A stretch of DNA of 56,155 bases from NCBI GenBank assembly GCA_017475935.1, contig JAFVEP010000024.1, forward strand, positions 1 to 56,155, in the 5' to 3' direction. The stretch comes from Alphaproteobacteria bacterium. Its GTDB lineage: Bacteria > Pseudomonadota > Alphaproteobacteria > RF32 > CAG-239. A program made the translations under genes and the position numbers. Below are positions 241 through 56,155 of this stretch, one piece after another. Under the pieces are notes generated by a model that was given only the letters and a program-made list of their open reading frames with translations, had not been told where the DNA came from and did no database searches. The first letter of the stretch is position 1; every line of letters starts with the position of its first letter.

Positions 241-1260
241 GCTCCGGAAACAAACGAGGATACATTCGACTCGCGGCAAGACACGGACGTTGATGACTTT
301 TTGCTCAATAAGAATATTTTGCCTCAAACTTCGGAAACACAAGATTTTACATCTTTTTCCGCCTCTGATCCGGATGAAGAAGATCTTCCCGACGCTTTGC
401 CTGACTTATCTGACATAGAGGATGATATTCCTTTGCATGCGGATATGCATATACCAAGAGATGTTCCAACGCCAGAAGACAGCCGTTTTTCTAAAGCAGA
501 ACCAGTCGAAACGAAAGACGCACCGACAAAAGCGAAGGAAACCACTGTACCTCAACCGGCCAAAGCCCCAAAAATTAAGGCCTACGACGATGCTATGCTC
601 AAAATCAAAGAGGCTCTCGAATCAAATGAGACCGTTTCTCTGAATGATATGGATGACGCCGGTCCCGTTTCCTTAAGCAATGAAGACGACACCGATCTGG
701 CCGATGTATTTGAAACCGCAAGCGAAGACACAACCGATGTCATGGAAAATGCATCGCCTGATGTTGCGGAAAACCAATCCACTGATGAGGCGTTTGAACC
801 GGCCGACGAAGAACCGATCGCCGATAAAAACGACGATTGGGAATATGTTGATGAAAATGATAAAGCGATCACCGATGCAGACGGCGATTGGGAATATGTC
901 GATGAAAACGGTAATCCGATCACCGATGCAGACGGCGATTGGGAATATGTCGACGAAAACGGCAATCCGATCACCGATGCGGACGGCGATTGGAAATACG
1001 TCGATGACGATCAAAAAACAGCCGACATTGCCAATGCTTTCAACGAAACGTCTTCCGCAGAAGATCAACCTCTCGACGATGCTATCGGCAAGGCCTTCAA
1101 CGATCAACCGTTTGACGACGCGACAGATGATCTGGCCGATGCTTTTGCCGAATCCGCACCGCAATCGAATGAACCTGCGCAAGATGATGCGCTGGCTGAT
1201 GCCTTCGCTTCCGATTCGCCGGATCCTTTGGCGAGTGCTTTTGAGGATAAAAACACATAA
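1..1260 (+). CDS. 5'-truncated CDS continuing upstream of the window. Repeat-rich protein with K/E-rich 14-aa repeats followed by a strongly acidic C-terminal half
   Basis: Frame 1 is open from nt 1 to the TAA at 1258-1260, so the ORF-track TTG start at 301 is a window-edge artefact. nt 1-240 encode (QKEKEKQQEKERQK)n. 832-1011 encode DWEYVDENGNPITDADG repeats. Confidence 0.7.
   Translation, partial: QKEKEKQQEKERQKQKEKEKQQEKERQKQKEKEKQQEKERQKQKEKEKQQEKERQKQKEKEKQQEKERQKQKEKKAEKSKAPETNEDTFDSRQDTDVDDFLLNKNILPQTSETQDFTSFSASDPDEEDLPDALPDLSDIEDDIPLHADMHIPRDVPTPEDSRFSKAEPVETKDAPTKAKETTVPQPAKAPKIKAYDDAMLKIKEALESNETVSLNDMDDAGPVSLSNEDDTDLADVFETASEDTTDVMENASPDVAENQSTDEAFEPADEEPIADKNDDWEYVDENDKAITDADGDWEYVDENGNPITDADGDWEYVDENGNPITDADGDWKYVDDDQKTADIANAFNETSSAEDQPLDDAIGKAFNDQPFDDATDDLADAFAESAPQSNEPAQDDALADAFASDSPDPLASAFEDKNT
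832..1011 (+). repeat. 48-51-nt in-frame tandem repeat, about 3.5 copies, encoding an acidic 17-aa unit
   Basis: gacggcgattgggaatatgtcgatgaaaacgg(t/c)aatccgatcaccgatgc(a/g) is repeated at 880 and 931, with diverged copies at 832 and 982. Confidence 0.85.
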
Positions 1261-4118: not shown

Positions 4119-4169
4119 TAAGTGTGTAATCAAAACATCTTCCCTTTCGCGACGCTGCGCTATAATCCT

Positions 4170-4239
4170 ATTTACTGTCATTTCTCGAAGTGCGCTGCGC
4201 GTCACTTCGTCAAGAAATCTCATCTTTGCGTAGCACTAT
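4170..4239 (+). repeat. 70-nt hairpin unit (type B), preceded by a partial tail-only unit at about 4134-4162
   Basis: Head tttactgtcat, then hairpin TTTCT/CGAAGTG/CGC-tgc-GCG/t/CACTTCG/tca/AGAAA, then tail tctcatctttgcgtagcactata. About 97% identical to 55938-56007. Confidence 0.8.
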
Positions 4240-4266
4240 ATTTTTTTAATTCGAAAATACCCTGAT

Positions 4267-4440
4267 CTCGTGTGTCCCATACTCGGAGGCATGACTTTTT
4301 ATTAATTGATAAAAAACACTTGACTTTTGCTGCGGGGGTAATGTGAAAAAAAATATTTTTAAACAGATAAAGTCACCCCTGTTTTTCGCTTTGAAAGCGA
4401 AAAATTGAAGGGGCTCCCGAATCTTAATGCAAAAGGAGAA
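4267..4440 (+). promoter_or_regulatory. conserved promoter/leader cassette, copy 1, upstream of a pilin-like ORF
   Basis: About 90% identical to 56031-56155. Contains TTGACT (4319-4324), G5 (4333-4337), TAATGT (4338-4343), a long leader hairpin at 4375-4412 (CCCC-tg-TTTTTCGCTTT-g-AAAGCGAAAAA-ttgaa-GGGG) and the RBS AAAGGAG at 4431-4437. Confidence 0.5.
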
Positions 4441-4445
4441 GTAAC

Positions 4446-4598
4446 ATGGGAACAAAAACAAACCAATCCGGTCGCAGTATGATTGAAATGCTGGGCGTCT
4501 TGGCCATCATTGGCGTTCTGTCAGTGGGAGGCATCGCCGGCTATTCCAAAGCAAAGGCGTCATTCTTAAATTCAGATAAATTCATATCATCTTTTTAA
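4446..4598 (+). pseudogene. truncated type IV pilin-like gene (50 codons: class III signal plus N-terminal helix only)
   Basis: Encodes MGTKTNQSGRSMIEMLGVLAIIGVLSVGGIAGYSKAKASFLNSDKFISSF*. The first 36 codons match the 47438 pilin at 34/36 residues. Homology stops after GYSKA and a stop follows 13 codons later. Below the ORF-track cutoff. Confidence 0.55.
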
Positions 4599-8470: not shown

Positions 8471-10279
8471 TCACCTTATATCCAACTTAAGCGCTTCCTG
8501 CAAAATTTTACCGGCAATCGGCGCCGCCACACCGGAACCGGAAGAACCATGTTCTACAATAACGGCAACCGCATACCGCGGATTATCCACCGGTGTAAAT
8601 CCGATGAAAAGAGCATGATTGCGCAAATTCCACGGCAAATTTTCATCTCGGGTAATGCCGCGTCTCCGTTCTTTCATAGAGATACGTCTGACCTGCGTCG
8701 TCCCCGTTTTTCCGCCCATTTTTGCACCATTGACATTGAAGCGCGCCCGACCGGCCGTACCTCCGGCACCGTTAACAACTTCAAACATCCCCTGTTTCAC
8801 GATTTCAATATTACGCACAGAAATCTTCAGCCGCTTTATTTTTTTCAAATTTTCCTTACTTTGTTTCACAAAAGTCGGTTGAACGGCATATCCCCCGTTA
8901 ACGACTCGAGCCAGCATCGTCACAAGCTGCAAAGGCGTAACCAAAACATAGCCTTGCCCGATACCTGAATTGGCCGAATCCCCCCTGCTCCACAGCGTGC
9001 CGTATTTTTCTTTTTTCCACTCTTTAGATGGGATCAATCCGGATTTTTCATTATCCAAACCGACATTTAAAATCTGCCCCATACCCAGTTGCAGAGCCAT
9101 ATCATGAATTTTATCAATACCGACTCTGAGCGCCGTTTCATAAAAGAAAATATCGCAAGAATGTTTCAACGCTTCAACCACATTCAAGTAACCGTGTCCG
9201 GAATGTTTCCAGCAGTGAAAGCGAATATTACCGATATCCATGCCGCCGGTACAATTAAACTCTGTATTCAGATTGATAACACCGGCTTCAAGCGCCGCCA
9301 ACGCCACCACAATTTTAAATGTCGACCCTGGGGAATACTGTCCCGAAACGGCCTTATTGATCAACGGTGTGCGCTCGTTATTGAGCAGTGCATTCCAGTG
9401 CTTGTAGCTGATACCGCCGGCAAACAGGTTCGGATCATAGGAAGGAGTTGAAACCAGTGCCAAAATTTCACCGCTGTGTACGTCAAGCACGACCGCCGCC
9501 CCGCTTTCATTACCGAAAGCCTCAAACGCCGCCTGTTGCAAGCGCGAATCAATGGTGATGGAAACGCTTTGGCCTTCTGAGCCGGCTTCTCTTTCTATTT
9601 CCTTCATCACCCGCCCGAAAGCATTAACTTCCAACTTAATCGAACCGACTTTGCCTTGCAAAATATGATCCAATGTTTTTTCCAATCCGGACTTGCCGAT
9701 TTTAAATCCGGGAACCATGTACAGCGGATTTTCCTGTTTGTCACCCTCGGCAACCGGTCCGACATAACCTAAAACATGGGCATATAAATTAGCGTACGGA
9801 TAATATCTGTTTAAGCCTTCATCAATTTCAATCCCCGGAAGTTCCGGCGCATGCAGCAAAATTTTAGCGACTTCTTCCCATGTCAGATTATCTTTAAGCT
9901 TAATCGGCACAAACCTTTTGCGTTTGCGAATATTTTGTTCGATTTTCACTTTTTCTTCATCATTAAACGGAACAATCCGTTCAAATATTTCCAGTGTTTT
10001 TTGAATATCCGGCGTTTGTTCGGCGATCAGCAAAACCTGAAAATTCTGATCATTTTTAGCAATCAATTCACCGTTTCTGTCATAGATCACCCCGCGCGGA
10101 GCCACTAAAAACCGCGTTGAAATTCTATTTTCATCAGACAATGTGCGATATTTATCCGCTTGATAAATCTGCAAATAGCATAAACGCGCCACAATCAGTA
10201 AGAACGCCGCCAGATTGAACAAAATAATCCACAGTGTTCGTCGGCTTAATACTTTAATTTTATCCGTGTTTTTACTCAT
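8471..10279 (-). CDS. mrdA: penicillin-binding protein 2 (elongasome transpeptidase)
   Basis: Motifs STFK and KTGT, with an N-terminal TM anchor. Start placed at MSKNTDKIK (10279), overlapping the mreD stop by 8 nt. The ORF extends to 10321. Confidence 0.9.
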   Translation of the reverse strand: MSKNTDKIKVLSRRTLWIILFNLAAFLLIVARLCYLQIYQADKYRTLSDENRISTRFLVAPRGVIYDRNGELIAKNDQNFQVLLIAEQTPDIQKTLEIFERIVPFNDEEKVKIEQNIRKRKRFVPIKLKDNLTWEEVAKILLHAPELPGIEIDEGLNRYYPYANLYAHVLGYVGPVAEGDKQENPLYMVPGFKIGKSGLEKTLDHILQGKVGSIKLEVNAFGRVMKEIEREAGSEGQSVSITIDSRLQQAAFEAFGNESGAAVVLDVHSGEILALVSTPSYDPNLFAGGISYKHWNALLNNERTPLINKAVSGQYSPGSTFKIVVALAALEAGVINLNTEFNCTGGMDIGNIRFHCWKHSGHGYLNVVEALKHSCDIFFYETALRVGIDKIHDMALQLGMGQILNVGLDNEKSGLIPSKEWKKEKYGTLWSRGDSANSGIGQGYVLVTPLQLVTMLARVVNGGYAVQPTFVKQSKENLKKIKRLKISVRNIEIVKQGMFEVVNGAGGTAGRARFNVNGAKMGGKTGTTQVRRISMKERRRGITRDENLPWNLRNHALFIGFTPVDNPRYAVAVIVEHGSSGSGVAAPIAGKILQEALKLDIR

Positions 10280-10799: not shown

Positions 10800-11663
10800 C
10801 TATGGCACCTCCGTCGAAGAATCGGGAAGTTCATCAAGTGTCAAGCCATAATCAACAATCCGTACATATTCGATTCGACTTATATCGGCCATTGTTTCCA
10901 CACTGATCACGCCGCCTTTATTAGAGCTGACAAAGCCGATCGGCAAACCGGCCGGAAACATTCCGCCGACACCGGAGGTTACGATCACATCACCTTCTTG
11001 CACATCAGCATTCGAGCGCACAAAAATCATCTGCGGAAACGCCGTATTATTTCCGCTCAAAATTCCCCGCACTCTGGTTCTTTCCACCACCACCGGAATT
11101 TTCGAGTTAATATCCGTCACCAAAATAACCTTGGCATAATGGCCGCTCACACTGTCTATACGTCCGATCACACTTTCATCACCCAAAACGATCTGACCTC
11201 TTTTCACATTTTCATCACCGATATAAACCAAAATCATATGGGTAAAATTATCCCCAGATTCCGCAATAATTTTTGCGCTGATAAACGACGCTTCCAGCGG
11301 CGGAACATAATTCAAAAGTCTTTCCAAAAGTTGATTTTCCACCTCCAGCGTTCGCACTTTATTTTGCAAAACCATAAGCTGATGATTTTCCGCGCGCAGA
11401 ATTTTATTATCGGCATATATATGGCTGATATCATAAAAATAAGTATAGATACGATGGATAATGCGCGCCGGAAATTCAATAACACTCATCACCGGACCGG
11501 TCACGGAAATCATTGCTTTGTCAATTTTATCAACCATAGGGCTATTGACTTTTCCGAGCAGAAAAAACATTCCGGCACAAACAAACAAGAGCACAACAAA
11601 AAAACGCCGCAAGACTGCTCTCAGCTGACCGATTTTAAGAAGCCATGCGCCGTTTTTTTTCAT
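10800..11663 (-). CDS. mreC: rod shape-determining protein MreC
   Basis: 287 aa with an N-terminal TM helix, a coiled-coil (NHQLMVLQNKVRTLEVENQLL) and a beta-rich C-domain (GDVIVTSG...FPAGLPIG). Confidence 0.9.
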   Translation of the reverse strand: MKKNGAWLLKIGQLRAVLRRFFVVLLFVCAGMFFLLGKVNSPMVDKIDKAMISVTGPVMSVIEFPARIIHRIYTYFYDISHIYADNKILRAENHQLMVLQNKVRTLEVENQLLERLLNYVPPLEASFISAKIIAESGDNFTHMILVYIGDENVKRGQIVLGDESVIGRIDSVSGHYAKVILVTDINSKIPVVVERTRVRGILSGNNTAFPQMIFVRSNADVQEGDVIVTSGVGGMFPAGLPIGFVSSNKGGVISVETMADISRIEYVRIVDYGLTLDELPDSSTEVP

Positions 11664-30410: not shown

Positions 30411-30484
30411 ATCCGACTTTTAACCAAAACTTAAAGTTTCACAGTTACAATCATGCCGAGAGGATGTATAAGAAAGGTCGTATT

Positions 30485-33400
30485 ATGTCTGAAAATACGC
30501 TATTTACCAAGGTTGTGTGCGTGGCAACGGCATGTTGTTTTGCACAGTCGGTTATGCCTAAAATTGCTTACGGACGCGGATTGGATCCTGTTTCTTTCAG
30601 CAGAATGTATGCCGTCGCGCAAAGCGGCGACGTTGAGGGTTTACGCGCCTCAGTCTATCGCGGCATGAACATCGATGCGGTCAATGCCCGCGGCGATACC
30701 GGACTTTGTGTTGCGGCCAGAAATCGCGATTCTTATACATACAATGCTTTTCGGGCGGCCGGCGCAAATCCGCGTCACCCGTGCGTACAGAATATTAAAG
30801 GTTATGAAGATTTCGTCGAATCATCAAACGCTGTTCCGGTAACGGCCACACCGCGTGATGCGTACGGCACTCTCGGCAAGGAAGAATATAAAATTTCTTC
30901 TTGGGTATGGTGGGGACTCGGCGGATTAATCGTCACCGGCATTGCTTTGGGGCTGGCCTTTTCCTGCGGCGGTGGCGGCGGTGGCGGCGGCGATTCAGGC
31001 GGCAGTGGTAGCGGCGAAAGCTACAACAGCTTAGGCGCATACGCCGGTAAAAGCGGAAAAGTCCGCAAATCAACATCCGGCACAGCCACCAACACTTCAT
31101 CCATCACATGGGAAAACTCCAAAACAGACAAGATAACTGCCATTAATTTAAACAACAATGTTTTGAGTAACACGCAGTATTTAGATGTCATTTTGAATGC
31201 CAAAAAAGGCGGCAAATATACGAATGAGCAGAACAAAATTTTAAAAGCCGGCGCCGGAACGGTTGCCATGAACGCGGTTAAAAACAGTCAGACATCTAAC
31301 GAAGGCTACATTAATATTGACTCATACAATGCGTCCATCGGCATGATCGCCAGCGAATTATCAACCGCTGTAAATAACGGCCGCGGCATCATTGACGGCA
31401 GCGATACAAACGGTATTGATATCAATTTTTCCGGTTATAAAAAAGACAATGTTGTTATCGGCATGTATGCGGATACAAGTTCAACACTGACCAACAACGG
31501 TGACATCAAAGGATCAGCCGTTAAAGCAACAGCTGACCCGTCATCTCAGCAAAACACCAACAATGAAACAGGGTTGGTTTCTAACTTAACCGACGGAACT
31601 TCATCGTCAGCATCAACCTCCAGCAAGGGTACTCTTGTCGGCATGGAAGCCATGCTGATCAATGTCGGCACCGATTTAAGCAACAAATATGTCACTCTGA
31701 TCAATAACACCGGCGGCAAAATCAATTTAAGCGCCGGTGACGGCGGCACGGAAACCGAGGTCACTGTTTCCATGATCGGCATGGGAAGCTGGCTGGATTA
31801 TAATTTTATGAACAGCTCACAAAACATCAATCGGGCCGAAAACGTACAGATTATTAACAAAGGTGACATTTCTTTAAGTTACACCGGTTCTTACAGCACC
31901 CCATCGACAACGGATTTACGTAAGGGCTTAGGCGGCGTTGTCGGCATGCGCGGAGATGCGCGCACAAGTGTATTAAACTATGCAGATGCCCGCATCAGCA
32001 TCACACTTGATGATTACACGGCAAAATCCGACAACAATTCATCAAGTTCGCAAGCACAAAGCGGCACCGAAGTTGCGGCCGGCATGCAATCCGTTCATGG
32101 CGCCAATTTAACCAACAACGGCACGATTTCCATCATCACGCCTTCGTCAAACAACCGCATCAGTTACGGACTTCTTTCTGTTGAAGGATCGGGAACCGTT
32201 TCAGGACTTTACACCAATTTGAATCAAAAGCTGATCAATAACGGCAACATTCAAATGGAGGTCAGCAACAGCTACGGCATGGCTTCGTACAACGGCGGCA
32301 CACTAAGCAACATTGGAACAATCACCATGGGCCGCGCCGGCACAACAACCTTATACGGTAAAAACGTAGCCATGTACGGTTCCGGTTCAAGTCAGGAAAC
32401 GACCATGGAAAACACCGGCACCATTAATTTACATTCATATAAATCAACGGCCATGCAGAACGATTATCCGGGCGGCACCGTCATGTATAACAAAGGCATC
32501 ATCAACATTGAGCGCAGTGCGACAGACTCGTATGTTTTCGGCGGCGCATACAGTGAAGCGCACAACAGCAAGACCATCAACTATTATGCGACAGCCTCAA
32601 ATGAAGGATCATCCGGTTCAGAAAGCTCTGCCATTGGTACGGATGATGCACCTTTTGCCAACATCAAAACGCCTGTCGGTATTTCGGCTGTCAGCACAAA
32701 AGCGCAAACCGCCGACGGCAAAGAGAATTCCGACGGTTCTAAAACCGAGAAAATATATAACGATCAGGGCGCATCAATTTTACTCAGCGGCGCGGCATAT
32801 GTTTCTGCCCTGTCGGTTGAAACCGCACAAGGCCGTGCCGAAAACAACGGCACTATCACCATTCAGGACAGCGATGTTAAAAACGCCGTCGATTCGGTCG
32901 GTATGTACATGGACGCCAGCACAATTTCGAGCGCTCGTATCACCAATGGTGCGAACGGAGTGATCAAAACCAACTCTAGATTTTCCAAGGCAATGATGAG
33001 CCTTTCACCGGCAATTTCAGCCATGGTCAACAACGGAAAGATCGAAGCCAATGCCGAATATTCGTTCGGTATGTTTGCCGATGGCAAAAGTTTAGTCAAC
33101 AACACCTCCACCGGTCAAATCCAGCTTAACAACAATAACAGTGCTGCCATTTATGTCAAAGGGGCGTCAACAATCAACAACGACGGAACTTTAAATGTCG
33201 GACAGCGTGCGCAAGGCTTAATGAACAGCTACGGTATTTATTTGGATGGTGATGCCGCCGAAGCAACCAACAGCGGTATCATCAATGTTTATGCCGACAA
33301 AAAACGAAACACGAATGTTACGGCGGCAATTCTCTTAAACAAGAATGCGACGGTTAAAAACAAAAATATGATCCATGTCAATTCCGGCGGCGCTTATGGT

Positions 33401-36400
33401 ATTTATGCAAAAGCGGGCGAAGGCAGTTCCATCATCAACGAAACAGAAGGAAGTATCGTTGTCGGAACCAGAACCACCTCTGTCAGTGACAGTTACGCTA
33501 TTTATGCCGCAGAAGGCGCAAATGCCTCCATTACCAACAACGGAACAATCACTTTGAATAACAATGGCAAGGCCTATGCTATTTATGCTTTAGGTGAATC
33601 TTCCGTAATTAACAACGGCATCATCAATCTCGAAAATGACAACGGAACGGCTATTTCCGTTGCCAACGGCACAGCCAGCAATAAGAACACCTTAAACCTC
33701 TTGCACAATAACAATGTCGGGCTGGAATTAAACGGAGAAGGTGAAATTATTAACGAAGAAGGATCTGTCATTAATGTCGGCAACGCTTCAAGCTTCAATG
33801 TTTCAAACATCAGTCAAGGCAATGCGGCGATGAGTAACACGGCCGAAGCCAAAGGAACCATCACCAACAAGGGTGAAATTGTCATCGACAACAAGAACAG
33901 CAGCAGCGACAACACCGGAATCAGAGTTATTGAATCGGCTGACAGCGACTCCGAAGGCGGCGAATCTTCATCAGTGACCGTCAACAACAACGGCGTTCTG
34001 CGCGCACTGACCGGCTACACAACAGCCATTACAGCCGGAAAAAACACAACAGTCAACAATGACGGAACCATCACCATTCTGGCGAACAGTTACGGCATCA
34101 AAAGTATTGGTGAAACAGGCAGCTTTACGTTTACGAACCACAACAACGGCATCATTAATGTCAACGGCAACAATAGCAAGGGTGTTTATGCCGAAAACGG
34201 CACAATTAACAATTACGGCAAAATTTTAGTCGGCAATTACACAGGCAGCAATGGCATTGAAACTTACGGCAAAGTTTCCGGCATCAACAACTACGGCACA
34301 ATAAAAGTTACCGGCAACAGCTCCAACGGTATTTATGTTTATCCGGTCGGCGGCCAGACTTTAACCATAGCCAACGGCGCCGGAGCAGTCTTAGAGGGTG
34401 GTTTTGCTTCCGTCAATGCCAAAAATGTCGGCGCCGTCACCATCACCAACGACGGTAAAATCCGCAATGCACAATACGGCATTTACGCCACTGAAGGTGC
34501 TTCTGAATTAACCATTACCAACAACGATGAGCTGAGCGGCACCATCGCCGCCATTTATGCGGAAACAAACACAAGCGTCGACATCAAGAATATTGGTACA
34601 ATTACCAATGGTATTTATCTTGTTCCGAAGCGTGACGGTGTTAAAATCAGTATAACAAACACCGGCACCATCACCGGCAGCGCTTTAACGAAAAATTACG
34701 GCATTTATATCAATAACAGCGGTTTTACGCCAAGTGAAGAAAGCGGCTATTATTTTGAAGATAAAGATCTCGGCGGTGCGACATGTACCACGGCGCAAGG
34801 CGTACAATGGTGTTATAAGAAAAAAGAAGGCGGAGACGGAGAACAAGGCGGAGGCGGAGAACAAGGCGGAGGCGGAGAACAAGGCGGAGGCGGAGAACAA
34901 GGCGGAGGCGGAGAACAAGATCCTTATACCAACAGCAAAACTGTCAATGTTCCGGAAAATAAAATAGGATTTTCTTTTACCAATGGCAACGATTTCACAT
35001 TTACCAACAGTAAAGACACCGGTGTGATAAACATTATCGGCGCCAATGCCAAGGGGGTTTATGCCACCAGCGGCACAATCAACAACAAAGGAAAAATCAC
35101 CATCGGCAATTATGCTGACAGCTATGGCATTTACGCCGAGGGCAATGTCAAAGCCATCAACAACACAGGCAGCATCACGGTCAACAATGCGGCTTCCAGT
35201 GCAATTTACGCCGCACCGATCGGCGGTTCATCCATTGCTATCACTAATGGCGTCGGCGGCATTTTGAGCGGCGGTTTTGCCTCCATCAATGCCAACAATG
35301 TCGGTGCCGTTAACATCACCAACAGCGGTACAATTTCCGGCGCCAAATACGGCATTTATTCAACGCAAGGTGCTTCGCCTTTAACCATTATCAATAATAA
35401 TGCTTTGGGCGGCACGATTGCCGGCATTTATGCCGAATCGAACTCTAACATTAATATTACCAATTTAAGTACCATCACCAACGGCATTTTCCTTGTTCCA
35501 AAGACCGAAAATGTCGGGATTACGATTAATAATAGCGGCACAATCACCAACAACACCGGCAAGGTTGAAATCAATGGTCAGCTGATACTTGATAGCCAAA
35601 ACTACGGCATTTACATCTATCAGTCGGACTTCAACCGCGCATATACATTTGATAACCTCGGCGGAGCGACTTGGGGCACCAACCGCTTTGAGCCGGATGA
35701 TCCGTCAATTGTGGCCGATCTCAGCAACAACGAAAAGGTTATCGTTGCTAAAAAGGCATCTGAAAATCCTAAACATTTAGCATCTCCTGGATTCCAGATT
35801 CTCGAAAACAGGATATTTATTAATGATAGCAATGGCCATATTGCTTTCGCCCCAAATTCGGATAGCGATAGGCTATATGGAATAAATGCTTTAATGGGAA
35901 CAATTATTAACAGAGGAGTAATTGATGCTCAGTGTCCAATCGGTAATTGTTGGGCTATATCTGGTGGACGGCACATAAGCTCTATTAAAAACTATGGCAC
36001 AATTAAGGGAGAGATTGTACTACGTGATCTTGAATCAGATGCCACTTTAGTGAATGGGAAAAACGGCAATATAGTAAGTGACACATTCGCAATTAATGCA
36101 AAAAACGGTTCAAAATTAACCATTCTTAATGACGGAATAATAAGCAAAACGGAACATGCTACCAGTGAATCTTCTGTCTCATATTATGCTATCGATACAT
36201 ATGGCATTTCACAAGTAACAATTAAAAATAATTCTAAAATCACCTCATCAAGTGCCACAACTATCCATGCACGAGAGGTTAATGACATTGAGATTTATAA
36301 CACCGGTACTATTGAAAGCCCCGATACAGATTTTGTTGAGGCCATATATATTGAAGCAAACAATAGTATCAAGATTACCAATACTGGAAGCATCATCGGT

Positions 36401-39400
36401 GGTATTTACCTTGTTCCGAAGAACACAAGCACAACGATTGATTTATATAACTCAGGTACTATGTCCGGTGGACCTAGAAGGCATGAGGCTAACATTTACA
36501 TTGCTCCGGATGGCTTTACGAAAGAATACACCTTCACCAACTTAGGCTCGGCCACATGCGGCCCATCGGGAACATGCATCGTCCAAGCCCCTGAACCGGA
36601 AGAAACCGATACCGGTACAGGTACGGGCACAGGCACAGGTACGGGTACAGGAACTGGTACGGGTACAGGTACAAGCGGCGACAATACCGGCTCATTTGAT
36701 CCGTATGATTCTAGTATCGTCGCAAGTGAAACGAATAATGAGGATATAAGAGTAGATAGCATACAAGATGACGGCACAGCATTCTCAACAAATGCAATAG
36801 TCAATGGGATTGAAATTACGGGCAAAAGTAATTCTTTTGTTTTCGAAAATAAAGGTAAGATTACTGTGCAGAGAAGTTCTAGCCACGGCATAATTGCCGA
36901 CAGCGGCACAATCATTAACCTTGGTACGATTCAATTGGATGGTAGCTATGCAGATCAATTCGATCCGAATTATGAGAGTGGAAAGGCCAATTACCGAAAA
37001 GATCTCAAAGGTATCTTAGGTCGCGAAGATGTAAAAGCGATTAAAAATTACGGAACAATTAATATTGAGGGTAATCCGCAAGGGCATAATTATGGAATCA
37101 CAGCCTCTCAACTGAACTCTCCTTTCGTCATAACCAACGGTGTCGGCGGTAGCATTGCAGGTCCTGCCCAAAGCTCTATTTATGTAACTGATACGGGTTA
37201 CCCCGTAACAGTTAATAATGACGGCACAATCAGTGGCGCCAAAGAATATGGTATTTATGTTGCAACAACTTCAGATATAAATATTAACAACAGCGGTACA
37301 TTAGAGGGAACTGTTGCTGCAATTTATGCCGCAACAAATAAGAATATAAGCCTCACCAATACCGGAACGATAACAAATGGTGTTTATCTTTATATGGGCA
37401 GTGAAGATGCCACTATTCAAATTCACAACACCGGTACGATCACAGGTAGCGCCAAAACACATAATGTTGGAATTTATATCGACCATGCATATGAAAAAGA
37501 TTATGGCATTACATCTGCAGACTTGGGAGGTGCTTCTTGTTTAACTTCCAATGGTAAATGCATCTCTGATACAGGTACTGAACAAGGCGGAGGCACCGAC
37601 ACAACCCTTGAGCCAAGTACTGGCCCATTCGTCGCTCCGGATGATCCGTCGATTGTGGCCGATCAAAGCAATTCAGCAACAGTGTCACTTAACTACGCCA
37701 AAGATAAGGGATTTACCATTCAAAATCAAGATAACAGCTATGTATTCATTAATGAAGAAACCGGTATAATCAACGTTAATAAAAACGAATCAGCTATTGC
37801 TGCAGATAGCGGTACAATCATTAACCGCGGACAAATTAACGTAGCTGCTGGTGTTGGTATAGGTATTGATGTCAGTAAAAATATTCGAGCTATTAAAAAT
37901 TATGGCACAATTCAAGCCAGAGAAGGCACTGCTATTTCAGCAGGGAATTTGACCTCAGATCTGACTGTTTCCAACGGTTTCAATGGAGTCATAGAAGGTG
38001 AAGAAAAACCAGTTTATATAAACAATACATCGAATGCTGTTTCTTTGACGGTTCTCAATGATGGTCAAATTCGCAGTAAGGGATATGCCATTTATGCCAT
38101 CAACGATAACGGCTTAATCACAATTAAGAACCATGGAACAATTATCGGTGACAGCGACAACACAGGAAACTATACAGCTGTCTATGCACGATCCGCTGTA
38201 GGCTTTAACATTACCAATAGCGGAACCATTACTAATGGTATTTATCTCTTTCCTAAAAGCGAAAATGCCACGATTAACATCAAAAATACCGGAACCATCA
38301 CCGGCAATGCAAAAACACAAAATTTTGGAATTTACATAATGAATTCGTCTATAGTCCCAGAACTCAGACCATATTACAACCTCACAAGCGCGGACTTAGG
38401 TTCAGCGACATGTTCGACCGCACAAGGTTCCGAATATTGCGGTTCCGCCCCTGTGGGAAACAACAATGTCGGCACTTCATCCTTTACGAAGAAAATGTAT
38501 ACGCTGAAAATTTTGAACACGGGAACCATCGCCAACAGCGGTGAAATGAACTTCGGCGATGATCAAGATCCGAATATTTCCGTCGGCGCCGGCGGTCAAT
38601 ATCAGGCCGATTCGTTTACCGGAACGGTAGGCGCTGATTCCAGCATTGTCGAAAGCGGATTCGATACCACCTATGTCAATGAAAATTCATTCGTCGGTAC
38701 CGATAAAGGCATTGTCGTCAAATCAAAATCCTACATGTTCAACGCCGACAAACAGGCGAACGCAAACGGCAATACCGACGTTGTCATGACCATGAAATCC
38801 ATAGACAGTGTCGTTGATGATCAGAAAATTGCCGGCTATTTGACACAAAACTATGAAAACCAAAAAGGCGAAGTCCTGTTTGCCTCTTTAAAATCGGCCG
38901 CCACAAAGAAAGCTTTCGCACAAAACTTGAACCGCGATCTCGGCTTCAACATGATACCGAACTTAATCAAGCAAAATACGGACACCGAAAAGGTCATTCA
39001 TCGCGAAATCACCGACGCACTTTTTGCCTCCGATCGTGATGGTGCGCATATCAAAATGCTGACCTATCAACGTCGCGCCGGAACAAAAAGCGGAGCTTTG
39101 GGATACAAAGACAAAGTCAGCGGCGCTTTCGGATTTTATCAGCACACCTTATCGAATGGCATCCGCACAGCGCTCGGATTCGACATTTATCGTGCCGTCA
39201 GCAGTTATAACGATGACTCTTCACGTTATCACAACGCTGCCGAAATCTTTGCTCCGATCATGCTCGGATCGCGTGAAAATGCGCTGATGTTCAAGCCGAA
39301 AGCCGGATTTACCCGCGGACATTATCGCCGCAGAAGTGCTTATGACGCCCATAAAGCGCGCACAAAGGAATACTATTACGGTGCCGATACGCAGTTCGAA

Positions 39401-39832
39401 CATACAACAGACTTCGGTATTGCCGAAATCGTTCCAATGGCCGGATTCGATGTGTTGAACATTCATGCCGGTAAAATTTCCGAAAGCAACAACGGCTTAA
39501 AGATCAAGAGTAAAGATCTGACCTCAGCACAATCCATGCTCGGTCTGAGCTTGCGGAAAAAATTCATCACCGATAATTCCGAAACATTGGCCCTCGAAAT
39601 CGGCGGCAAGTACTACCGCGAATTCGGCGATAAAGATCGCTCAAAGGTCAGTGTTGCCGACGCTCAAGGCTACTACACCATTCGCGGCCGTCAAACACAG
39701 CGCGACTTCGGTTTACTGACCGCCAAGGGAGAATATACATACGGAAACATTGAAGCTACGGCTGAGCTGGGCGTTCCTTTGGAACAAAAAGCCAAACCTT
39801 TCGGTTTGTTCAGTATCGGTTATCGTTTTTAG
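30485..39832 (+). CDS. giant autotransporter-type surface protein (about 3115 aa): ankyrin N-terminus, hydrophobic lipobox-like segment, poly-Gly linker, repetitive passenger, C-terminal beta-barrel
   Basis: The single ORF opens at 30464. The ATG at 30485 has a better-spaced AGAAAGG. The passenger is dominated by N-x-G-x-I / YGIYA beta-strand repeats. The C-terminal region of about 300 aa is rich in alternating aromatic residues and ends ...FGLFSIGYRF, an OMP signature. Confidence 0.85.
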   Translation: MSENTLFTKVVCVATACCFAQSVMPKIAYGRGLDPVSFSRMYAVAQSGDVEGLRASVYRGMNIDAVNARGDTGLCVAARNRDSYTYNAFRAAGANPRHPCVQNIKGYEDFVESSNAVPVTATPRDAYGTLGKEEYKISSWVWWGLGGLIVTGIALGLAFSCGGGGGGGGDSGGSGSGESYNSLGAYAGKSGKVRKSTSGTATNTSSITWENSKTDKITAINLNNNVLSNTQYLDVILNAKKGGKYTNEQNKILKAGAGTVAMNAVKNSQTSNEGYINIDSYNASIGMIASELSTAVNNGRGIIDGSDTNGIDINFSGYKKDNVVIGMYADTSSTLTNNGDIKGSAVKATADPSSQQNTNNETGLVSNLTDGTSSSASTSSKGTLVGMEAMLINVGTDLSNKYVTLINNTGGKINLSAGDGGTETEVTVSMIGMGSWLDYNFMNSSQNINRAENVQIINKGDISLSYTGSYSTPSTTDLRKGLGGVVGMRGDARTSVLNYADARISITLDDYTAKSDNNSSSSQAQSGTEVAAGMQSVHGANLTNNGTISIITPSSNNRISYGLLSVEGSGTVSGLYTNLNQKLINNGNIQMEVSNSYGMASYNGGTLSNIGTITMGRAGTTTLYGKNVAMYGSGSSQETTMENTGTINLHSYKSTAMQNDYPGGTVMYNKGIINIERSATDSYVFGGAYSEAHNSKTINYYATASNEGSSGSESSAIGTDDAPFANIKTPVGISAVSTKAQTADGKENSDGSKTEKIYNDQGASILLSGAAYVSALSVETAQGRAENNGTITIQDSDVKNAVDSVGMYMDASTISSARITNGANGVIKTNSRFSKAMMSLSPAISAMVNNGKIEANAEYSFGMFADGKSLVNNTSTGQIQLNNNNSAAIYVKGASTINNDGTLNVGQRAQGLMNSYGIYLDGDAAEATNSGIINVYADKKRNTNVTAAILLNKNATVKNKNMIHVNSGGAYGIYAKAGEGSSIINETEGSIVVGTRTTSVSDSYAIYAAEGANASITNNGTITLNNNGKAYAIYALGESSVINNGIINLENDNGTAISVANGTASNKNTLNLLHNNNVGLELNGEGEIINEEGSVINVGNASSFNVSNISQGNAAMSNTAEAKGTITNKGEIVIDNKNSSSDNTGIRVIESADSDSEGGESSSVTVNNNGVLRALTGYTTAITAGKNTTVNNDGTITILANSYGIKSIGETGSFTFTNHNNGIINVNGNNSKGVYAENGTINNYGKILVGNYTGSNGIETYGKVSGINNYGTIKVTGNSSNGIYVYPVGGQTLTIANGAGAVLEGGFASVNAKNVGAVTITNDGKIRNAQYGIYATEGASELTITNNDELSGTIAAIYAETNTSVDIKNIGTITNGIYLVPKRDGVKISITNTGTITGSALTKNYGIYINNSGFTPSEESGYYFEDKDLGGATCTTAQGVQWCYKKKEGGDGEQGGGGEQGGGGEQGGGGEQGGGGEQDPYTNSKTVNVPENKIGFSFTNGNDFTFTNSKDTGVINIIGANAKGVYATSGTINNKGKITIGNYADSYGIYAEGNVKAINNTGSITVNNAASSAIYAAPIGGSSIAITNGVGGILSGGFASINANNVGAVNITNSGTISGAKYGIYSTQGASPLTIINNNALGGTIAGIYAESNSNINITNLSTITNGIFLVPKTENVGITINNSGTITNNTGKVEINGQLILDSQNYGIYIYQSDFNRAYTFDNLGGATWGTNRFEPDDPSIVADLSNNEKVIVAKKASENPKHLASPGFQILENRIFINDSNGHIAFAPNSDSDRLYGINALMGTIINRGVIDAQCPIGNCWAISGGRHISSIKNYGTIKGEIVLRDLESDATLVNGKNGNIVSDTFAINAKNGSKLTILNDGIISKTEHATSESSVSYYAIDTYGISQVTIKNNSKITSSSATTIHAREVNDIEIYNTGTIESPDTDFVEAIYIEANNSIKITNTGSIIGGIYLVPKNTSTTIDLYNSGTMSGGPRRHEANIYIAPDGFTKEYTFTNLGSATCGPSGTCIVQAPEPEETDTGTGTGTGTGTGTGTGTGTGTSGDNTGSFDPYDSSIVASETNNEDIRVDSIQDDGTAFSTNAIVNGIEITGKSNSFVFENKGKITVQRSSSHGIIADSGTIINLGTIQLDGSYADQFDPNYESGKANYRKDLKGILGREDVKAIKNYGTINIEGNPQGHNYGITASQLNSPFVITNGVGGSIAGPAQSSIYVTDTGYPVTVNNDGTISGAKEYGIYVATTSDININNSGTLEGTVAAIYAATNKNISLTNTGTITNGVYLYMGSEDATIQIHNTGTITGSAKTHNVGIYIDHAYEKDYGITSADLGGASCLTSNGKCISDTGTEQGGGTDTTLEPSTGPFVAPDDPSIVADQSNSATVSLNYAKDKGFTIQNQDNSYVFINEETGIINVNKNESAIAADSGTIINRGQINVAAGVGIGIDVSKNIRAIKNYGTIQAREGTAISAGNLTSDLTVSNGFNGVIEGEEKPVYINNTSNAVSLTVLNDGQIRSKGYAIYAINDNGLITIKNHGTIIGDSDNTGNYTAVYARSAVGFNITNSGTITNGIYLFPKSENATINIKNTGTITGNAKTQNFGIYIMNSSIVPELRPYYNLTSADLGSATCSTAQGSEYCGSAPVGNNNVGTSSFTKKMYTLKILNTGTIANSGEMNFGDDQDPNISVGAGGQYQADSFTGTVGADSSIVESGFDTTYVNENSFVGTDKGIVVKSKSYMFNADKQANANGNTDVVMTMKSIDSVVDDQKIAGYLTQNYENQKGEVLFASLKSAATKKAFAQNLNRDLGFNMIPNLIKQNTDTEKVIHREITDALFASDRDGAHIKMLTYQRRAGTKSGALGYKDKVSGAFGFYQHTLSNGIRTALGFDIYRAVSSYNDDSSRYHNAAEIFAPIMLGSRENALMFKPKAGFTRGHYRRRSAYDAHKARTKEYYYGADTQFEHTTDFGIAEIVPMAGFDVLNIHAGKISESNNGLKIKSKDLTSAQSMLGLSLRKKFITDNSETLALEIGGKYYREFGDKDRSKVSVADAQGYYTIRGRQTQRDFGLLTAKGEYTYGNIEATAELGVPLEQKAKPFGLFSIGYRF
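34829..34918 (+). repeat. perfect 18-nt tandem repeat, 4.5 copies, encoding (GEQGGG)n
   Basis: ggagaacaaggcggaggc begins at 34838, 34856, 34874 and 34892, with a half copy at 34910. Confidence 0.95.
36611..36673 (+). repeat. imperfect 6-nt repeat encoding (TG)10 T
   Basis: The run accggtacaggtacgggcacaggcacaggtacgggtacagga... uses mixed codons, so it is not a pure microsatellite. Confidence 0.9.
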
Positions 39833-52356: not shown

Positions 52357-54810
52357 TTAGTCAACCTTTTTCGCTTCAATGCGCATCGCATAAAACGAAC
52401 GCCATACGAAAACAAGGCCGATCAGCAAAAATACGACAGCCACGGTCAGCGCCACATCCGGATTGGTTTCCCAAACCTTGGCTGACATTTCAGCGGCCAG
52501 CAAACCGAACAATGTCGTAAATTTAATAATCGGATTCAAGGCAACGGAAGCCGTATCTTTGTACGGATCACCGACCGTATCGCCGACAACGGATGCTGCA
52601 TGCAATTCCGATCCTTTTTCGTTTAAGTCCACTTCAACCACTTTTTTGGCATTATCCCAAGCACCGCCGGCATTCGCCATATACAGCGCCTGATATAATC
52701 CGAAGACCGCAATTGAAATCAGATAGCTGGCAAACAATTCCGGACCGAAGAAGGCAAACGAAATCGCAAATGAAAAGATCACAATAAAGATATTAAACAT
52801 ACCTTTCTGAGCATATTGTGTACAAATGCGCACCACCGTTTTGGAATCTTCGACCGACGCGGCTTTTTTTGTATCCAGCTTAATATGTTCTTTAATATAG
52901 TTCACTGCGCGATAAGCACCGGTCGAAACAGCCTGAATGGCCGCGCCCGAGAACCAATAAATGACCGCGCCGCCCAACAGCAATCCCATCAGCACGCGGG
53001 CATCAATCAAATTCAGTTCCAATTTCAGAAGCAAGATGATCGAGAAGATCATGGTTGTCGCACCGATCACCGCCGTTCCGATCAGCACCGGTTTCGACGT
53101 TGCTTTAAAAGTATTCCCGGCCGAATCGTTTGCTTCCAGCAAATGTTTTCCATGTTCAAAATCCGGCGCAAAACCATATTCTTTTTGAATTTCTTTTTTA
53201 ATACCTTTCTGTGCTTCAATCTGCGAAAGTTCAAACACGGATTGCGCATTATCCGTTACCGGACCATAGCTGTCAACAGCAATAGTCACCGGTCCCATAC
53301 CGAGCATACCGAAAGCGACCAAACCGAAAGCAAAGACCGTCGGATAAATCATCAGATATTGCAAATCACCTTGCGAGGCGACATAAGCCACCGCCATCAA
53401 GCCGACCATAACAACACCCTGCCAAAATCCCGAGAAGTTACCGGAAACAATACCGGACAAAATATTCAGCGATGCGCCGGCTTCACGACTGGCATTTACA
53501 ACCTCTTGAACATGCTGAGATTTCGAAGATGTAAATATTTTCGTAAATTCCGGAATAATCGCTGCCGCCAAAGTTCCGCAGCTGATGATCACCGAAAGTT
53601 TCCACCAAATCTGGGTACCGAACTGCGTTGCCGGCAGCATCAGGTAAGAAACACCAAACGTAACGGCAATCGAGATCAGCGATGTCAGCCAAATCAAACT
53701 GGTTAAAGGTTTTTCAAAATCAAAAGATTCTTTTTTACCGAAAATCATCTTGGCAAAAAATCCGTTAAGCGCATATGAAAAGACCGATGTCATGATCATC
53801 AGAATACGCATAGCGAAAATCCATGTAATCAAGCGAGCCTGCAGTTCCGGTGCATAAACATATTCTGCCAAGCTGCCGTCTTCGGTATAGTGCATACCGC
53901 CGGCCAAAACGATAAAACTAATCAAGGCCACGCCGGTCACGCCGTATGTTTCAAATCCGTCCGCAGTCGGGCCGCATGAATCGCCGGCATTGTCACCCGT
54001 ACAATCGGCAATAACACCCGGATTGCGTGCATCATCTTCATCAATTTTGAAAATAATTTTCATCAAATCAGCACCGATATCGGCAATTTTCGTAAAGATA
54101 CCGCCGCAAATACGCAGCGCCGAAGCACCGAGCGATTCGCCGATCGCAAAGCCGATAAAGCAAGCACCGGCCGTATCACGCGGTACAAATACCAAGATGA
54201 ACAACATCACCAAAAGTTCAACACAAATCAACAAAACGCCGATCGACATACCCGAGCGCAGCGGCAAATCCATAACCGGATAAGCTTTGCCTTTAAGCGA
54301 AGCAAAAGAAGTACGCGAGTTGGCATATGTATTAATGCGCATACCGAACCAAGCCACCGTAAACGAACCTAAAATTCCTAAAACGGACCACAGCAAAATA
54401 TAGAGTACTTTCGCCAGAGGCGTATTATTCAGGCCGGCAAAGTAATAAACGATGCATGCGCCGATAAACAATTCAAGTACAAACAAGAGTTTAGCCTGCT
54501 GTTTCATATACGTTTTGCATGTTGCATAAATCGTTTCAGAAACTTTAAGCATGGATTCGTGCGCCGGAAGTTTTTTTATGCTGAAAAACTCCCACAATCC
54601 GAAAACCATGCCCAACAAACAAATGCCCATGCCGGCAACCAGAAGCTGATTTCCGGAAACGGTCAATCCGAACAAGTTATAAGTGGCGTTATCCAAAGAA
54701 GGAATCAACAGATCCAACTCTGAAGCATCAGCGCCGTTTATAACAGAAAATAAAAGTGCAAAGGCCGTTAAAAAAGCCTTACAAATCTGAGTTCTGTTTA
54801 TAATCATCAT
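52357..54810 (-). CDS. hppA: membrane-bound pyrophosphatase (M-PPase), divergent, Lys-type (K+-independent-like)
   Basis: GGIFTKIADIGADL, DDARNPGVIADCTGDNAGD, GNTFKATSKP and GDTVGDPYKDT motifs. 817 aa. Confidence 0.9.
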   Translation of the reverse strand: MMIINRTQICKAFLTAFALLFSVINGADASELDLLIPSLDNATYNLFGLTVSGNQLLVAGMGICLLGMVFGLWEFFSIKKLPAHESMLKVSETIYATCKTYMKQQAKLLFVLELFIGACIVYYFAGLNNTPLAKVLYILLWSVLGILGSFTVAWFGMRINTYANSRTSFASLKGKAYPVMDLPLRSGMSIGVLLICVELLVMLFILVFVPRDTAGACFIGFAIGESLGASALRICGGIFTKIADIGADLMKIIFKIDEDDARNPGVIADCTGDNAGDSCGPTADGFETYGVTGVALISFIVLAGGMHYTEDGSLAEYVYAPELQARLITWIFAMRILMIMTSVFSYALNGFFAKMIFGKKESFDFEKPLTSLIWLTSLISIAVTFGVSYLMLPATQFGTQIWWKLSVIISCGTLAAAIIPEFTKIFTSSKSQHVQEVVNASREAGASLNILSGIVSGNFSGFWQGVVMVGLMAVAYVASQGDLQYLMIYPTVFAFGLVAFGMLGMGPVTIAVDSYGPVTDNAQSVFELSQIEAQKGIKKEIQKEYGFAPDFEHGKHLLEANDSAGNTFKATSKPVLIGTAVIGATTMIFSIILLLKLELNLIDARVLMGLLLGGAVIYWFSGAAIQAVSTGAYRAVNYIKEHIKLDTKKAASVEDSKTVVRICTQYAQKGMFNIFIVIFSFAISFAFFGPELFASYLISIAVFGLYQALYMANAGGAWDNAKKVVEVDLNEKGSELHAASVVGDTVGDPYKDTASVALNPIIKFTTLFGLLAAEMSAKVWETNPDVALTVAVVFLLIGLVFVWRSFYAMRIEAKKVD

Positions 54811-55757: not shown

Positions 55758-55815
55758 TGACAAGCCCCTTTTCACGTTGAAAGCGAAAAATTCAAAGTCT
55801 TCCGAATCTTTTAGT
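55758..55815 (+). repeat. degenerate, gene-less remnant of the 3' part of the leader cassette
   Basis: gccccttttcacgttgaaagcgaaaaattcaaagtcttccgaatctt parallels 4374-4424 but is not followed by an RBS or pilin ORF. Confidence 0.45.
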
Positions 55816-55860
55816 AACAAAGCCATTTCTGCCCCTATACGCCGTGTCCGTGTGTCTTTT

Positions 55861-55930
55861 TTTATTGTCATCGCTCGCACGGCACGCCGTGTCCGTGCGT
55901 CCAGCGATCTCATCTTTGCGCAGCACTATA
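55861..55930 (+). repeat. 70-nt hairpin unit (type A)
   Basis: Head tttattgtcat, then hairpin TCGCT/CGCACGG/CAC-gcc-GTG/t/CCGTGCG/tcc/AGCGA, then tail tctcatctttgcgcagcactata. Confidence 0.85.
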
Positions 55931-55937
55931 CATCTAT

Positions 55938-56007
55938 TTTACTGTCATTTCTCGAAGTGCGCTACGCGTCACTTCGTCAAGAAATCTCATCTTTGCGCAG
56001 CACTATA
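55938..56007 (+). repeat. 70-nt hairpin unit (type B')
   Basis: Same head and tail as type A. Hairpin TTTCT/CGAAGTG/CGC-tac-GCG/t/CACTTCG/tca/AGAAA. 7-nt spacer catctat after unit A. Confidence 0.85.
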
Positions 56008-56030
56008 TCTGAATATTGAAGATGCCCCAA

Positions 56031-56155
56031 CCTCGTGTGTTCCACACTCGGAGGCATGATTTTTTATTAATTTATAAAAAAAGACTTGACTTTTGCTGCG
56101 GGGGGGTAATGTGAAAAAAAATATTTTTAAACGGGTAAAGTCACCCCTATTTTTC
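56031..56155 (+). promoter_or_regulatory. conserved promoter/leader cassette, copy 2, cut by the window end
   Basis: About 90% identical to 4267-4386. TTGACT (56086-56091), G7 (56100-56106), TAATGT (56107-56112). Ends inside the leader hairpin, so the driven gene lies beyond the window. Confidence 0.5.

Follow-up and report, generated by a model that had tools for sequence, protein, structure and literature searches.

Pilin-associated mosaic arrays of bulged palindromic units in an uncultured alphaproteobacterium resemble CGTC-tagged REP repeats

Background

Repetitive extragenic palindromes (REPs) of the CGTC superfamily, which includes Rickettsia RPE-4/6 and Neisseria dRS3 (CGTC-1 members), carry a CGTC tag or its TGTC or CCTC variants and begin their stems with A and T in positions 1 and 2 (Di Nocera, De Gregorio & Rocco 2013, PMC3733652). 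Their stems measure 8-9 bp and their loops 4-5 nt, and a short unpaired tail fits CCA; the hosts are mainly alphaproteobacterial, dimers in opposite orientation with spacers are frequent, sub-families use alternative complementary stem residues, and no (tyrosine) transposase is associated with them (PMC3733652). In Neisseria, dRS3 (ATTCCC-N8-GGGAAT, 20 bp) lies between recurring spacer families in neisserial intergenic mosaic elements (NIMEs; Bentley et al. 2007, PMC1797815). NIME arrays cluster beside surface-protein genes including pilS, with a suggested role as substrates of recombination or targets of recombinases; the 2007 account knew of none outside Neisseria (PMC1797815). Here we describe a family of bulged palindromic units found at two loci of a 56,155-nt stretch of DNA (contig JAFVEP010000024.1, hereafter the window), which belongs to an Alphaproteobacteria metagenome-assembled genome (MAG) with locus tags IJ852_.

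We read the units as REP-type palindromic DNA repeats of the alphaproteobacterial kind tagged CGTC or TGTC, in an elaborated form and set in mosaic arrays like those of NIMEs and of bacterial interspersed mosaic elements (BIMEs), and put the probability of this reading at about 60%. An initial annotation of the window, made from its letters alone, had been unable to assign the units to a known class. That verdict is superseded: tag, closing pairs, host class, dimers and arrays, and compensating sub-families all match CGTC REPs (PMC3733652).

The comparison covered ~190 kb of the window genome. DNA past the window end (contig L020) was reached via an exact match of a MarC-like protein, and other same-genome contigs were picked through pilin homologues; the pilin-paralogue contigs L030, L033 and L034 come from the same sample as L020 (ERZ27256838). 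Sample labels (XIEF21) suggest a ruminant-gut MAG set. Contigs L001 and L002 represent strains, and pattern scans of public collections gave two true relatives outside the genome, L006 (a JGI metagenome contig) and L016 (an Alphaproteobacteria MAG contig).

Results

Bulged hairpin units at two loci of the window

Two adjacent 70-nt units, at 55861-55930 (unit A) and 55938-56007 (unit B'), have common flanks and the same fold, as first annotated, and a third full unit at 4171-4240 shares with them both the flanks and the stem-bulge-stem-bulge-stem fold. A repeat search aligned 55860-55930 with 55937-56007 as a direct repeat of 71 nt (77% identity); it also paired 55839-55856 with 55884-55901 (18 nt, 94%), which confirms the partial unit proposed upstream of A. 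Three copies of the 23-nt tail TCTCATCTTTGCGCAGCACTATA lie in the window (at 4218, 55908 and 55985), against 0.00 expected from shuffles. Folding the plus strand as RNA returned the annotated 5+7+3-bp stems with bulges in all three units (minimum free energy -17.4 to -23.6 kcal/mol; z = -2.1 to -2.6). Stem 1 is longer than the 5 bp given at first, since A-T and T-A pairs bring it to 6 bp. Stems 1, 2 and 3 of these units, our class L, thus measure 6, 7 and 3 bp from the outside inward; a 3-nt bulge on the 3' side separates stems 1 and 2, a single bulged T separates stems 2 and 3, and the loop has 3 nt. Between A and B', six pairs are swapped on both sides, all compensated (two in stem 1, three in stem 2 and one in stem 3), exactly as had been noticed.

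The units of the window are listed below with their strands; scores come from a covariance model built from six units, which also recovers E-, F- and U-type units.

4136..4170, plus strand: short S-type or degenerate module CATCTTCCCTTTCGCGACGCTGCGCTATAATCC that precedes unit B, homologous to L030 6771-6800 and L020 5290-5262
4177..4240, plus strand: L-class unit of type B (core 4177-4220, tail 4217-4240), by fold; model score 71.3 bits
4241..4295, minus strand: R-class unit (core 4255-4295) with tail, a T run following on the plus strand, by fold and model
4372..4425, plus strand: U-class leader unit GTCAC CCCT GTTTTTCGC TTTGAAA GCGAAAAAT TGA AGGG with tail GCTCCCGAATCTT, by RNA fold
55765..55810, plus strand: degenerate U-class unit CCCCT..TTGAAAGCGAAAAATT..CCGAATCTT, by a 16-nt exact match to 4391-4406 and comparison with L033 11540-11600
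55839..55866, plus strand: truncated unit (type A loop and right arm, ending ...GTGTC), then T7 and the head of unit A, by partial repeat copy
55867..55910, plus strand: L-class core of type A, with GTC tag, stem 1 ATCGCT:AGCGAT, TCC bulge, 7-bp stem 2, T bulge, 3-bp stem 3, GCC loop and ATCT; model score 62.7 bits, E 1e-12
55907..55930, plus strand: L-class tail of unit A, ATCTCATCTTTGCGCAGCACTATA, sharing the last 4 nt with the core
55944..55987, plus strand: L-class core of type B', with ATTTCT:AGAAAT, CGAAGTG:CACTTCG and CGC:GCG; model score 71.2 bits
55984..56007, plus strand: L-class tail of unit B', by sequence match
56008..56060, minus strand: R-class unit with tail, by reverse-complement fold and a weak covariance-model match at 56020-56060 (minus strand)
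56140..56155, plus strand: start of a U-class unit, GTCAC CCCT ATTTTTC..., cut by the window end; model score 18.3 bits, E 0.057

On the minus strand, the R unit at 56008..56060 reads ATCAT GCCT CCGAGTGTG GAA CACACGAGG TTG GGGC ATCTTCAATATTCAGA, and its architecture and tail type (ATCTTCGAATTA...) match R units of L016, L006, L030 and L034. On the plus strand, the same sequence shows a hairpin with a T run behind it and so resembles a terminator. The terminator-like hairpin beside the L units (56020-56060, and 4255-4295 at the other locus) is thus itself a family member in opposite orientation. A diverged copy of the R unit at 4241..4295 lies at the same place in L002. The leader U unit at 4372..4425 folds as RNA at -22.2 kcal/mol (z -2.76), and its paralogue in L033 keeps the flanks with stem 2 swapped to CCAAACC:GGTTTGG. 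The U unit that starts at 56140 continues in L020 6147-6103, and 55765..55810 is evidently a remnant of the pilin-leader hairpin module.

A common plan with covarying stems

All classes follow one plan. The NGTC tag is unpaired, and stem 1 opens with the closing pairs A-T and T-A, continues with two variable pairs and finishes with C-G and T-A; next come a 3-nt bulge on the 3' side (usually TCA), a variable inner stem, and an end at AT followed by CT(C/T/A) that runs into a class-specific conserved tail. L units add the T bulge and the 3-bp apical stem and carry a 24-nt conserved tail, ATCTCATCTTTGCGNAGCNCTATA, which is kept in L006 and L016 as ATCT(C/T)(A/G)TCTTTGCGNAGCNCTAT. R units are without the apical stem and have the tail ATCTTCGAATTA..., and U units, with head GTCAC and tail CTCCCGAATCTT, form the hairpin in the predicted pilin 5' untranslated region. 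R, E, F and H units all consist of 6 bp, a bulge, then 7-9 bp. Five L-type stems are known: A and B from the window genome, C from L006, D from L016 and I from L030.

The tag reads TGTC in types A, B, B', C', E, F and H, CGTC in C, I and the L033 and L036 units, and AGTC or GGTC in D, R1, U and Y, its GTC being invariant among L units. The closing pairs (10-48, AU, and 11-47, UA) are invariant in 8/8 L units and present in 10/11 units of a wider alignment. TTAC, which had been pointed out in the head as an IS608-like feature, is confined to B-type heads; the others read TTATTGTCAT, TAATCGTCAT, ATGAGTCAT and ATACGTCAT, and the conserved part is NGTC followed by AT.

Stem changes across the units are compensated, bearing out the suggestion of selection on structure rather than sequence. 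When eight L units from three genomes were placed in an ungapped alignment, 97.9% of cells paired and both sides had changed in 10 of 18 pairs; 0/500 shuffles reached the observed level, and slid registers paired at 29-46%. In an alignment of 11 distinct units to the covariance model, which by being fitted to that model is biased toward structure, 98.8% of cells paired and both sides had changed in 11 of 16 pairs. Each unit is an imperfect palindrome able to form a hairpin on one strand, and the family is recognizable by the unpaired NGTC tag, the A-T/T-A closing pairs, the inner C-G and T-A of stem 1, the TCA bulge and, in class L, the T bulge. Other stem positions are free as long as they pair, hence the compensated swaps that set types A, B, C, D and I apart.

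Units are joined tail-to-tail and head-to-head in mosaic arrays that contain both orientations. In the window, each L tail leads into an R unit on the other strand (tail-to-tail); L units can also stand in direct tandem, each ending CTATA. The L016 array alternates plus and minus units with a period of 250 nt, and the L030 array runs S - B(+) - X(-) - I(+) - R(-) - promoter - U - pilin. Pairing of L with R stems, as in REPINs, was considered and rejected: the stems are unrelated, and a DNA fold gives separate hairpins. Among contigs of the window genome chosen through pilin homologues (~190 kb), the count came to no fewer than 10 L, 9 R and 8 U units. Without exception the copies lie between genes, and pairing in opposite orientation is the norm.

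GTC stands at every helix discontinuity of the L units (tag, T bulge and TCA bulge). Besides the one in the window (55853-55866), truncated units stand ahead of type A or B units at L020 5256-5290, L030 6765-6806 and L034 10683-10719 and 19400-19464; at all of these places YRTC ends the truncated or short unit, and a T-rich stretch and the next GTCAT head follow. This recurrence of GTC and YRTC could reflect a cleavage or recognition motif, or merely part of a longer conserved head.

Comparison with described repeat systems

Like CGTC REPs, the window family has an NGTC tag, a complementary A/T stem start, an alphaproteobacterial host, opposite-orientation pairs with spacers, no transposase nearby, and sub-families that differ by complementary stem change (types A, B, C, D and I, plus E, F, H, X and Y). 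Since compensated stem differences are documented for REP sub-families, they account for the feature that had made the units striking in the first place. The family differs from CGTC REPs in that tail-to-tail pairs are as common as head-to-head ones.

With NIMEs it shares inverted repeats of six bases at the ends, which enclose a variable centre (ATTCCT...AGGAAT in types D and I, ATNNCT...AGNNAT in general), recurring spacer families in the arrays, pilin or surface-protein neighbours, composition that varies by locus, and recombination tracts ending inside arrays. It differs in its alphaproteobacterial host and in a centre of ~27 nt with further helices versus 8 nt, so the units are not of the dRS3 form; around the window family we saw no phage or IS110/Piv-type recombinase. 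The REPs and BIMEs of Escherichia coli, with their REP-associated tyrosine transposases (RAYTs), likewise have bulged imperfect palindromes with an unpaired 5' tag, at least two unit classes, alternating orientation and defined linkers (PMC3333891, PMC2817692). In contrast to these, the tag here is NGTC (heads NGTCAT) with no GTAG, no RAYT was found in the ~190 kb examined, and unit density in the sequence examined is far lower. Ends of IS200/IS605 elements (IS608) and PATE elements also have sub-terminal hairpins with an extrahelical T, whereas the window family lacks a conserved TTAC or other cleavage tetranucleotide and has its partner hairpins on the opposite strand, with no tnpA or tnpB found.

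Copies in other contigs and genomes

Unit A recurs at L020 5211 and 6377 and at L034 9724, 10720 and 19465. With units on at least five contigs of the genome and in two other assemblies, the family is more than a simple local duplication, a possibility raised in the initial annotation. In L006, two unit loci flank an unrelated 443-aa gene beside tRNA-Gln, and the L016 array comes after a 150-aa gene with no pilin in view. These units away from pilin genes favour a general intergenic repeat.

A GTDB pattern scan with the AGCAC tail gave no match; a second turned up L016 as its one true relative, along with 11 chance matches to coding DNA. The JGI metagenome scan yielded one true relative (L006) and one chance match, the IMG/VR viral contigs chance matches only, and BLAST against plasmid and phage records no match. 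A simple regular expression for GTCAT hairpins gave 15 matches in the window against a shuffle mean of 19 and, being unspecific, was left out of the unit counts.

In a related species (J6N49 MAG, L036), the sequence at 10724 reads CGTCAT, a 10-bp stem, a TTTT loop and ATCT, the only unit near the canonical CGTC REP form. A pilin gene of L036 is flanked by repeats of other families (9300-9620 and 10820-10990), namely a ~120-nt tandem upstream and a duplicated ~75-nt element downstream.

Recombination within the arrays

Across 14 kb, the L001 and L002 strains show 29 differences, of which 14 are concentrated in one 61-nt tract that runs from L tail to R unit (L001 9569-9629, equivalent to window 4228-4290); one more sits in a poly-G run. 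Judging from the sequence, the tract is gene conversion from a paralogue outside the examined DNA. The number and type of units differ among loci. Among the strains compared, we saw no polymorphism between filled and empty sites.

At L033 11430-11640, a U-type 5' half-unit (GTCACCCCTCCAAACC) stands in three tandem 33-nt copies, the 3' arm being present in the last only, and further half-units follow to the contig end. At L034 19640-19803 (minus strand), the end of an open reading frame (ORF), ...IDIIQNKINNRPMKVLNWNTPCQLFFTS*, adjoins the head of an R unit and weakly matches the C-terminus of an IS30-family transposase (NF033563, E 0.083); this array may have received an insertion sequence at its edge.

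Arrays upstream of pilin genes

In the window genome, the arrays occupy the space between type IV pilin paralogues (Pfam Bundlin/PilS or N_methyl). At its downstream end the array runs straight into a module made up of the promoter-like CTTGAC - 9 nt - poly-G - TAATGT and a leader that contains a U unit, after which comes the pilin gene. We found six such loci: loci 1 and 2 of the window, L020 5100-5290, L030 6770-7110, and L034 9700-9900 and 10620-10890. The corresponding window features are as follows.

4319..4344, plus strand: promoter-like CTTGAC - 9 nt - G5 - TAATGT, by consensus only
4446..4598, plus strand: 50-aa prepilin stub downstream of the module, with the N-terminal methylation motif only (Pfam N_methyl, E 4e-4)
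56085..56112, plus strand: promoter-like CTTGAC - 9 nt - G7 - TAATGT, right after the R unit, by consensus only

The CTTGAC and TAATGT elements would act as promoters. Poly-G length is 5, 6, 7 or 9 across paralogous and orthologous loci (window 4334-4338 and 56100-56106; L002 ~9671; L034 ~9876), and two strains differ at the same run, with 5 G in the window and L001 and 6 G in L002. Length variation in poly-G is a classic signature of slipped-strand phase variation, and the run is a candidate phase switch that alters the length of the promoter spacer.

The modules can be found apart from one another. At L030 5880-5975 the promoter stands by itself behind an ordinary terminator, at L030 5000-5150 it is accompanied by U only, and one array is without a promoter (L034 19400-19640). 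The distance from tail to -35 varies from 37 nt in L006 to ~78 nt in the window. Many pilin loci are without units (window 47438, same-genome paralogues in L031 and L032, and an other-species locus, L043).

In the leader at 4414-4438, a predicted RNA fold pairs CUCC, just past the U hairpin, with the Shine-Dalgarno GGAG; on this model, the pairing could occlude the ribosome-binding site. Downstream of the stub lie a STAS anti-sigma-antagonist gene and then a dCache-SpoIIE-HATPase gene. Several public assemblies (L003-L005) break within the conserved pilin N-terminus.

Searches for partner enzymes and other functions

Pfam scans of the window's ORFs, including PF01797-type models, found no Y1/RAYT, TnpB/IscB or integrase gene, and the precomputed Pfam lists of L001, L020 and L030-L034 (~130 kb more same-genome DNA) hold none of these either. 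A search for such partners had been proposed at the outset; across the ~190 kb none was found. Rfam gave no match at the gathering threshold in the whole window, and relaxing the cut-off to E 10 brought up nothing but noise for the locus and for L016. The early caveat that the family might already match an Rfam or REP family thus holds in part on the REP side and not for Rfam. The window contains no tRNA or tmRNA.

Several other functions were considered for the units and rejected. A consensus scan of tail and head on both strands for promoters (sigma-70, alphaproteobacterial CTTGAC-N17-CTATAT, RpoH-like and sigma-54) was empty: CTATAT at the tail end is -10-like, but there is no -35 at a workable distance, so a promoter reading fails. 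A minus-strand peptide, MRFLDEV..., has no ribosome-binding site, its ORF runs to 17 to 100 codons depending on the flank, and it appears conserved because the underlying nucleotides are. Integron attC sites are excluded by the lack of R''/R' boxes (RYYYAAC / GTTRRRY), by both orientations, by tandem units with no ORFs between them, and by the lack of an integrase in the window. On inspection, the linker contains none of the motifs that define oriT/nic, IHF sites or CtrA boxes.

Other features of the window

An acidic protein gene with tandem DGDWEYVDENGNPITDA-like repeats lies at window 301-1260 (L001 6150-6350), and its repeat region varies between strains. The 3122-aa ORF at 30464-39832, whose weak BigA beta-sandwich match is its only Pfam match, probably encodes a giant surface protein. 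An H+-pyrophosphatase is a single 817-codon ORF in the window (52357-54810) and two genes (289 and 527 aa) in the ERZ27256838 assembly (L020 7480-9929); we take the split to be a frameshift or an assembly error.

Discussion

The preferred reading treats the units as elaborated CGTC/TGTC REPs whose arrays would work chiefly on the level of DNA, offering dispersed homology and sites where hairpins can form. Pilin expression loci would thereby undergo gene conversion and rearrangement more readily, the T run and hairpin of R units would stop read-through into the switchable poly-G promoter, and the U hairpin would be transcribed within the pilin mRNA leader.

Several observations weigh against this reading. 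The palindrome measures ~39 nt, with 6+7+3 bp and two conserved bulges, outside the size range of CGTC REPs, and its 3' end is CT(C/T) with a 20-nt conserved tail, not CCA. Copy number may be low, for the covariance model with filters off matched only two loci in the 56-kb window and detected no units in L031, L032 or L043. R units of the window genome hold uncompensated changes. The G-T pairs of well-conserved units are all on the head-first strand, and all L units seen point the same way as the gene or genes that flank them (the downstream gene wherever known), two observations that leave room for a role at the RNA level. Nearly all same-genome arrays seen are tied to one pilin promoter module, on contigs picked through pilin homologues, so the units could have spread by co-duplication with pilin loci.

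In one alternative, the units, instead of being general repeats, are cis parts of a pilin expression or variation module, namely terminator or insulator hairpins and a protein-binding 24-nt tail, copied with pilin promoters and kept in shape for a pilin-specific regulator or recombinase. The six loci with arrays directly upstream of the same poly-G promoter speak for it, as do the terminator-like R unit with its T run, the U unit in the predicted leader, and a tail that is more conserved than the stems across three genomes. Such a module sits poorly with the units away from pilin genes in L006 and L016, with the occurrence of promoters without units and of an array without a promoter, with the unfixed spacing from tail to -35 (37 nt versus ~78 nt), and with the other same-genome pilin paralogues that are without units (window 47438, L031 and L032). 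We consider it unlikely, if the best placed of the alternatives.

The units might instead be non-autonomous elements that an HUH Y1 enzyme with its gene elsewhere in the genome (RAYT-like, or the TnpA of IS200/IS605) mobilizes as single-stranded DNA, the hairpin, bulges and tag being recognition and cleavage signals. An unpaired tag beside a bulged hairpin matches the recognition logic of REP/RAYT systems (PMC3333891, PMC3479197), and GTC at each helix discontinuity of the L units points the same way. The YRTC ends of truncated units before the next head are compatible with a specific cleavage site, and the direct tandem L units each end in CTATA. Yet no Y1_Tnp, RAYT or TnpB occurs in the ~190 kb of genome examined, the GTAG tag is absent, TTAC is unconserved, filled and empty sites were not seen among the strains compared, and the published CGTC REPs are without a tyrosine transposase (PMC3733652). 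The initial annotation had offered REP/RAYT or IS200/IS605 elements as one of its two hypotheses. Its REP half, hairpins of REP-like DNA, pointed to the right neighbourhood; the analogy with IS608 and PATE does not hold, given unconserved TTAC, both orientations and no Y1 or TnpB. Overall, we find the HUH-mobilized alternative rather improbable.

The other initial hypothesis, genes or domains of a structured small-RNA family, draws on covariation with a few G-U pairs, all on the head-first strand, on the co-orientation of L units with flanking genes at every locus seen, and on the U units inside the predicted mRNA leader. It is disfavoured by the alternating strand of family members within one array and by the position of L units, often between a conventional terminator and the next predicted promoter; no convincing promoter or terminator belongs to the units, Rfam was empty even at relaxed E-values, and the minus-strand MRFLD... 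ORF of 17 to 100 codons has no ribosome-binding site. A small-RNA family is very unlikely on this evidence. We give hardly any credence to a purely mutational origin of the compensated differences (quasipalindrome correction by intra-strand template switching, or arm-to-arm gene conversion), which would leave the fold saying little about function: gene conversion is demonstrably active in the arrays, and half-units and tandem 5' halves exist, but template switching would erase the bulges, yet the TCA and T bulges are fixed in place and near-constant across at least five stem types and three genomes, and the non-palindromic tag and tails are conserved too.

Beyond the reading of the units as REP-type DNA repeats, a bolder proposal is that the arrays form a NIME-like programmed recombination system for pilin diversification in uncultured gut Alphaproteobacteria, driven by a putative structure-specific DNA strand-transferase that would read the GTC-marked discontinuities and cut after YRTC. 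We regard this as speculative and improbable. If true, it would account for the truncation points, the tandem half-units and the reshuffled L, R and U modules, and the strand-transferase system and the poly-G switch would together set which pilin paralogue is expressed, and in what form.

Conclusions

If the units are indeed REP-type repeats, one practical consequence is that such arrays break metagenome assemblies at pilin loci and can pass for small RNAs or terminators in annotation. The CGTC/TGTC REP superfamily would also reach an uncultured alphaproteobacterial lineage, probably from the ruminant gut. The elaborate form of the units, with three helices, two bulges and long tails, would then be a natural data set on the features of a repeat that the cell reads. 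NIME-like arrays around multiple pilin genes would not be confined to Neisseria, and these arrays, with their poly-G promoters, would represent an independent case of repeat-assisted variation of surface proteins.

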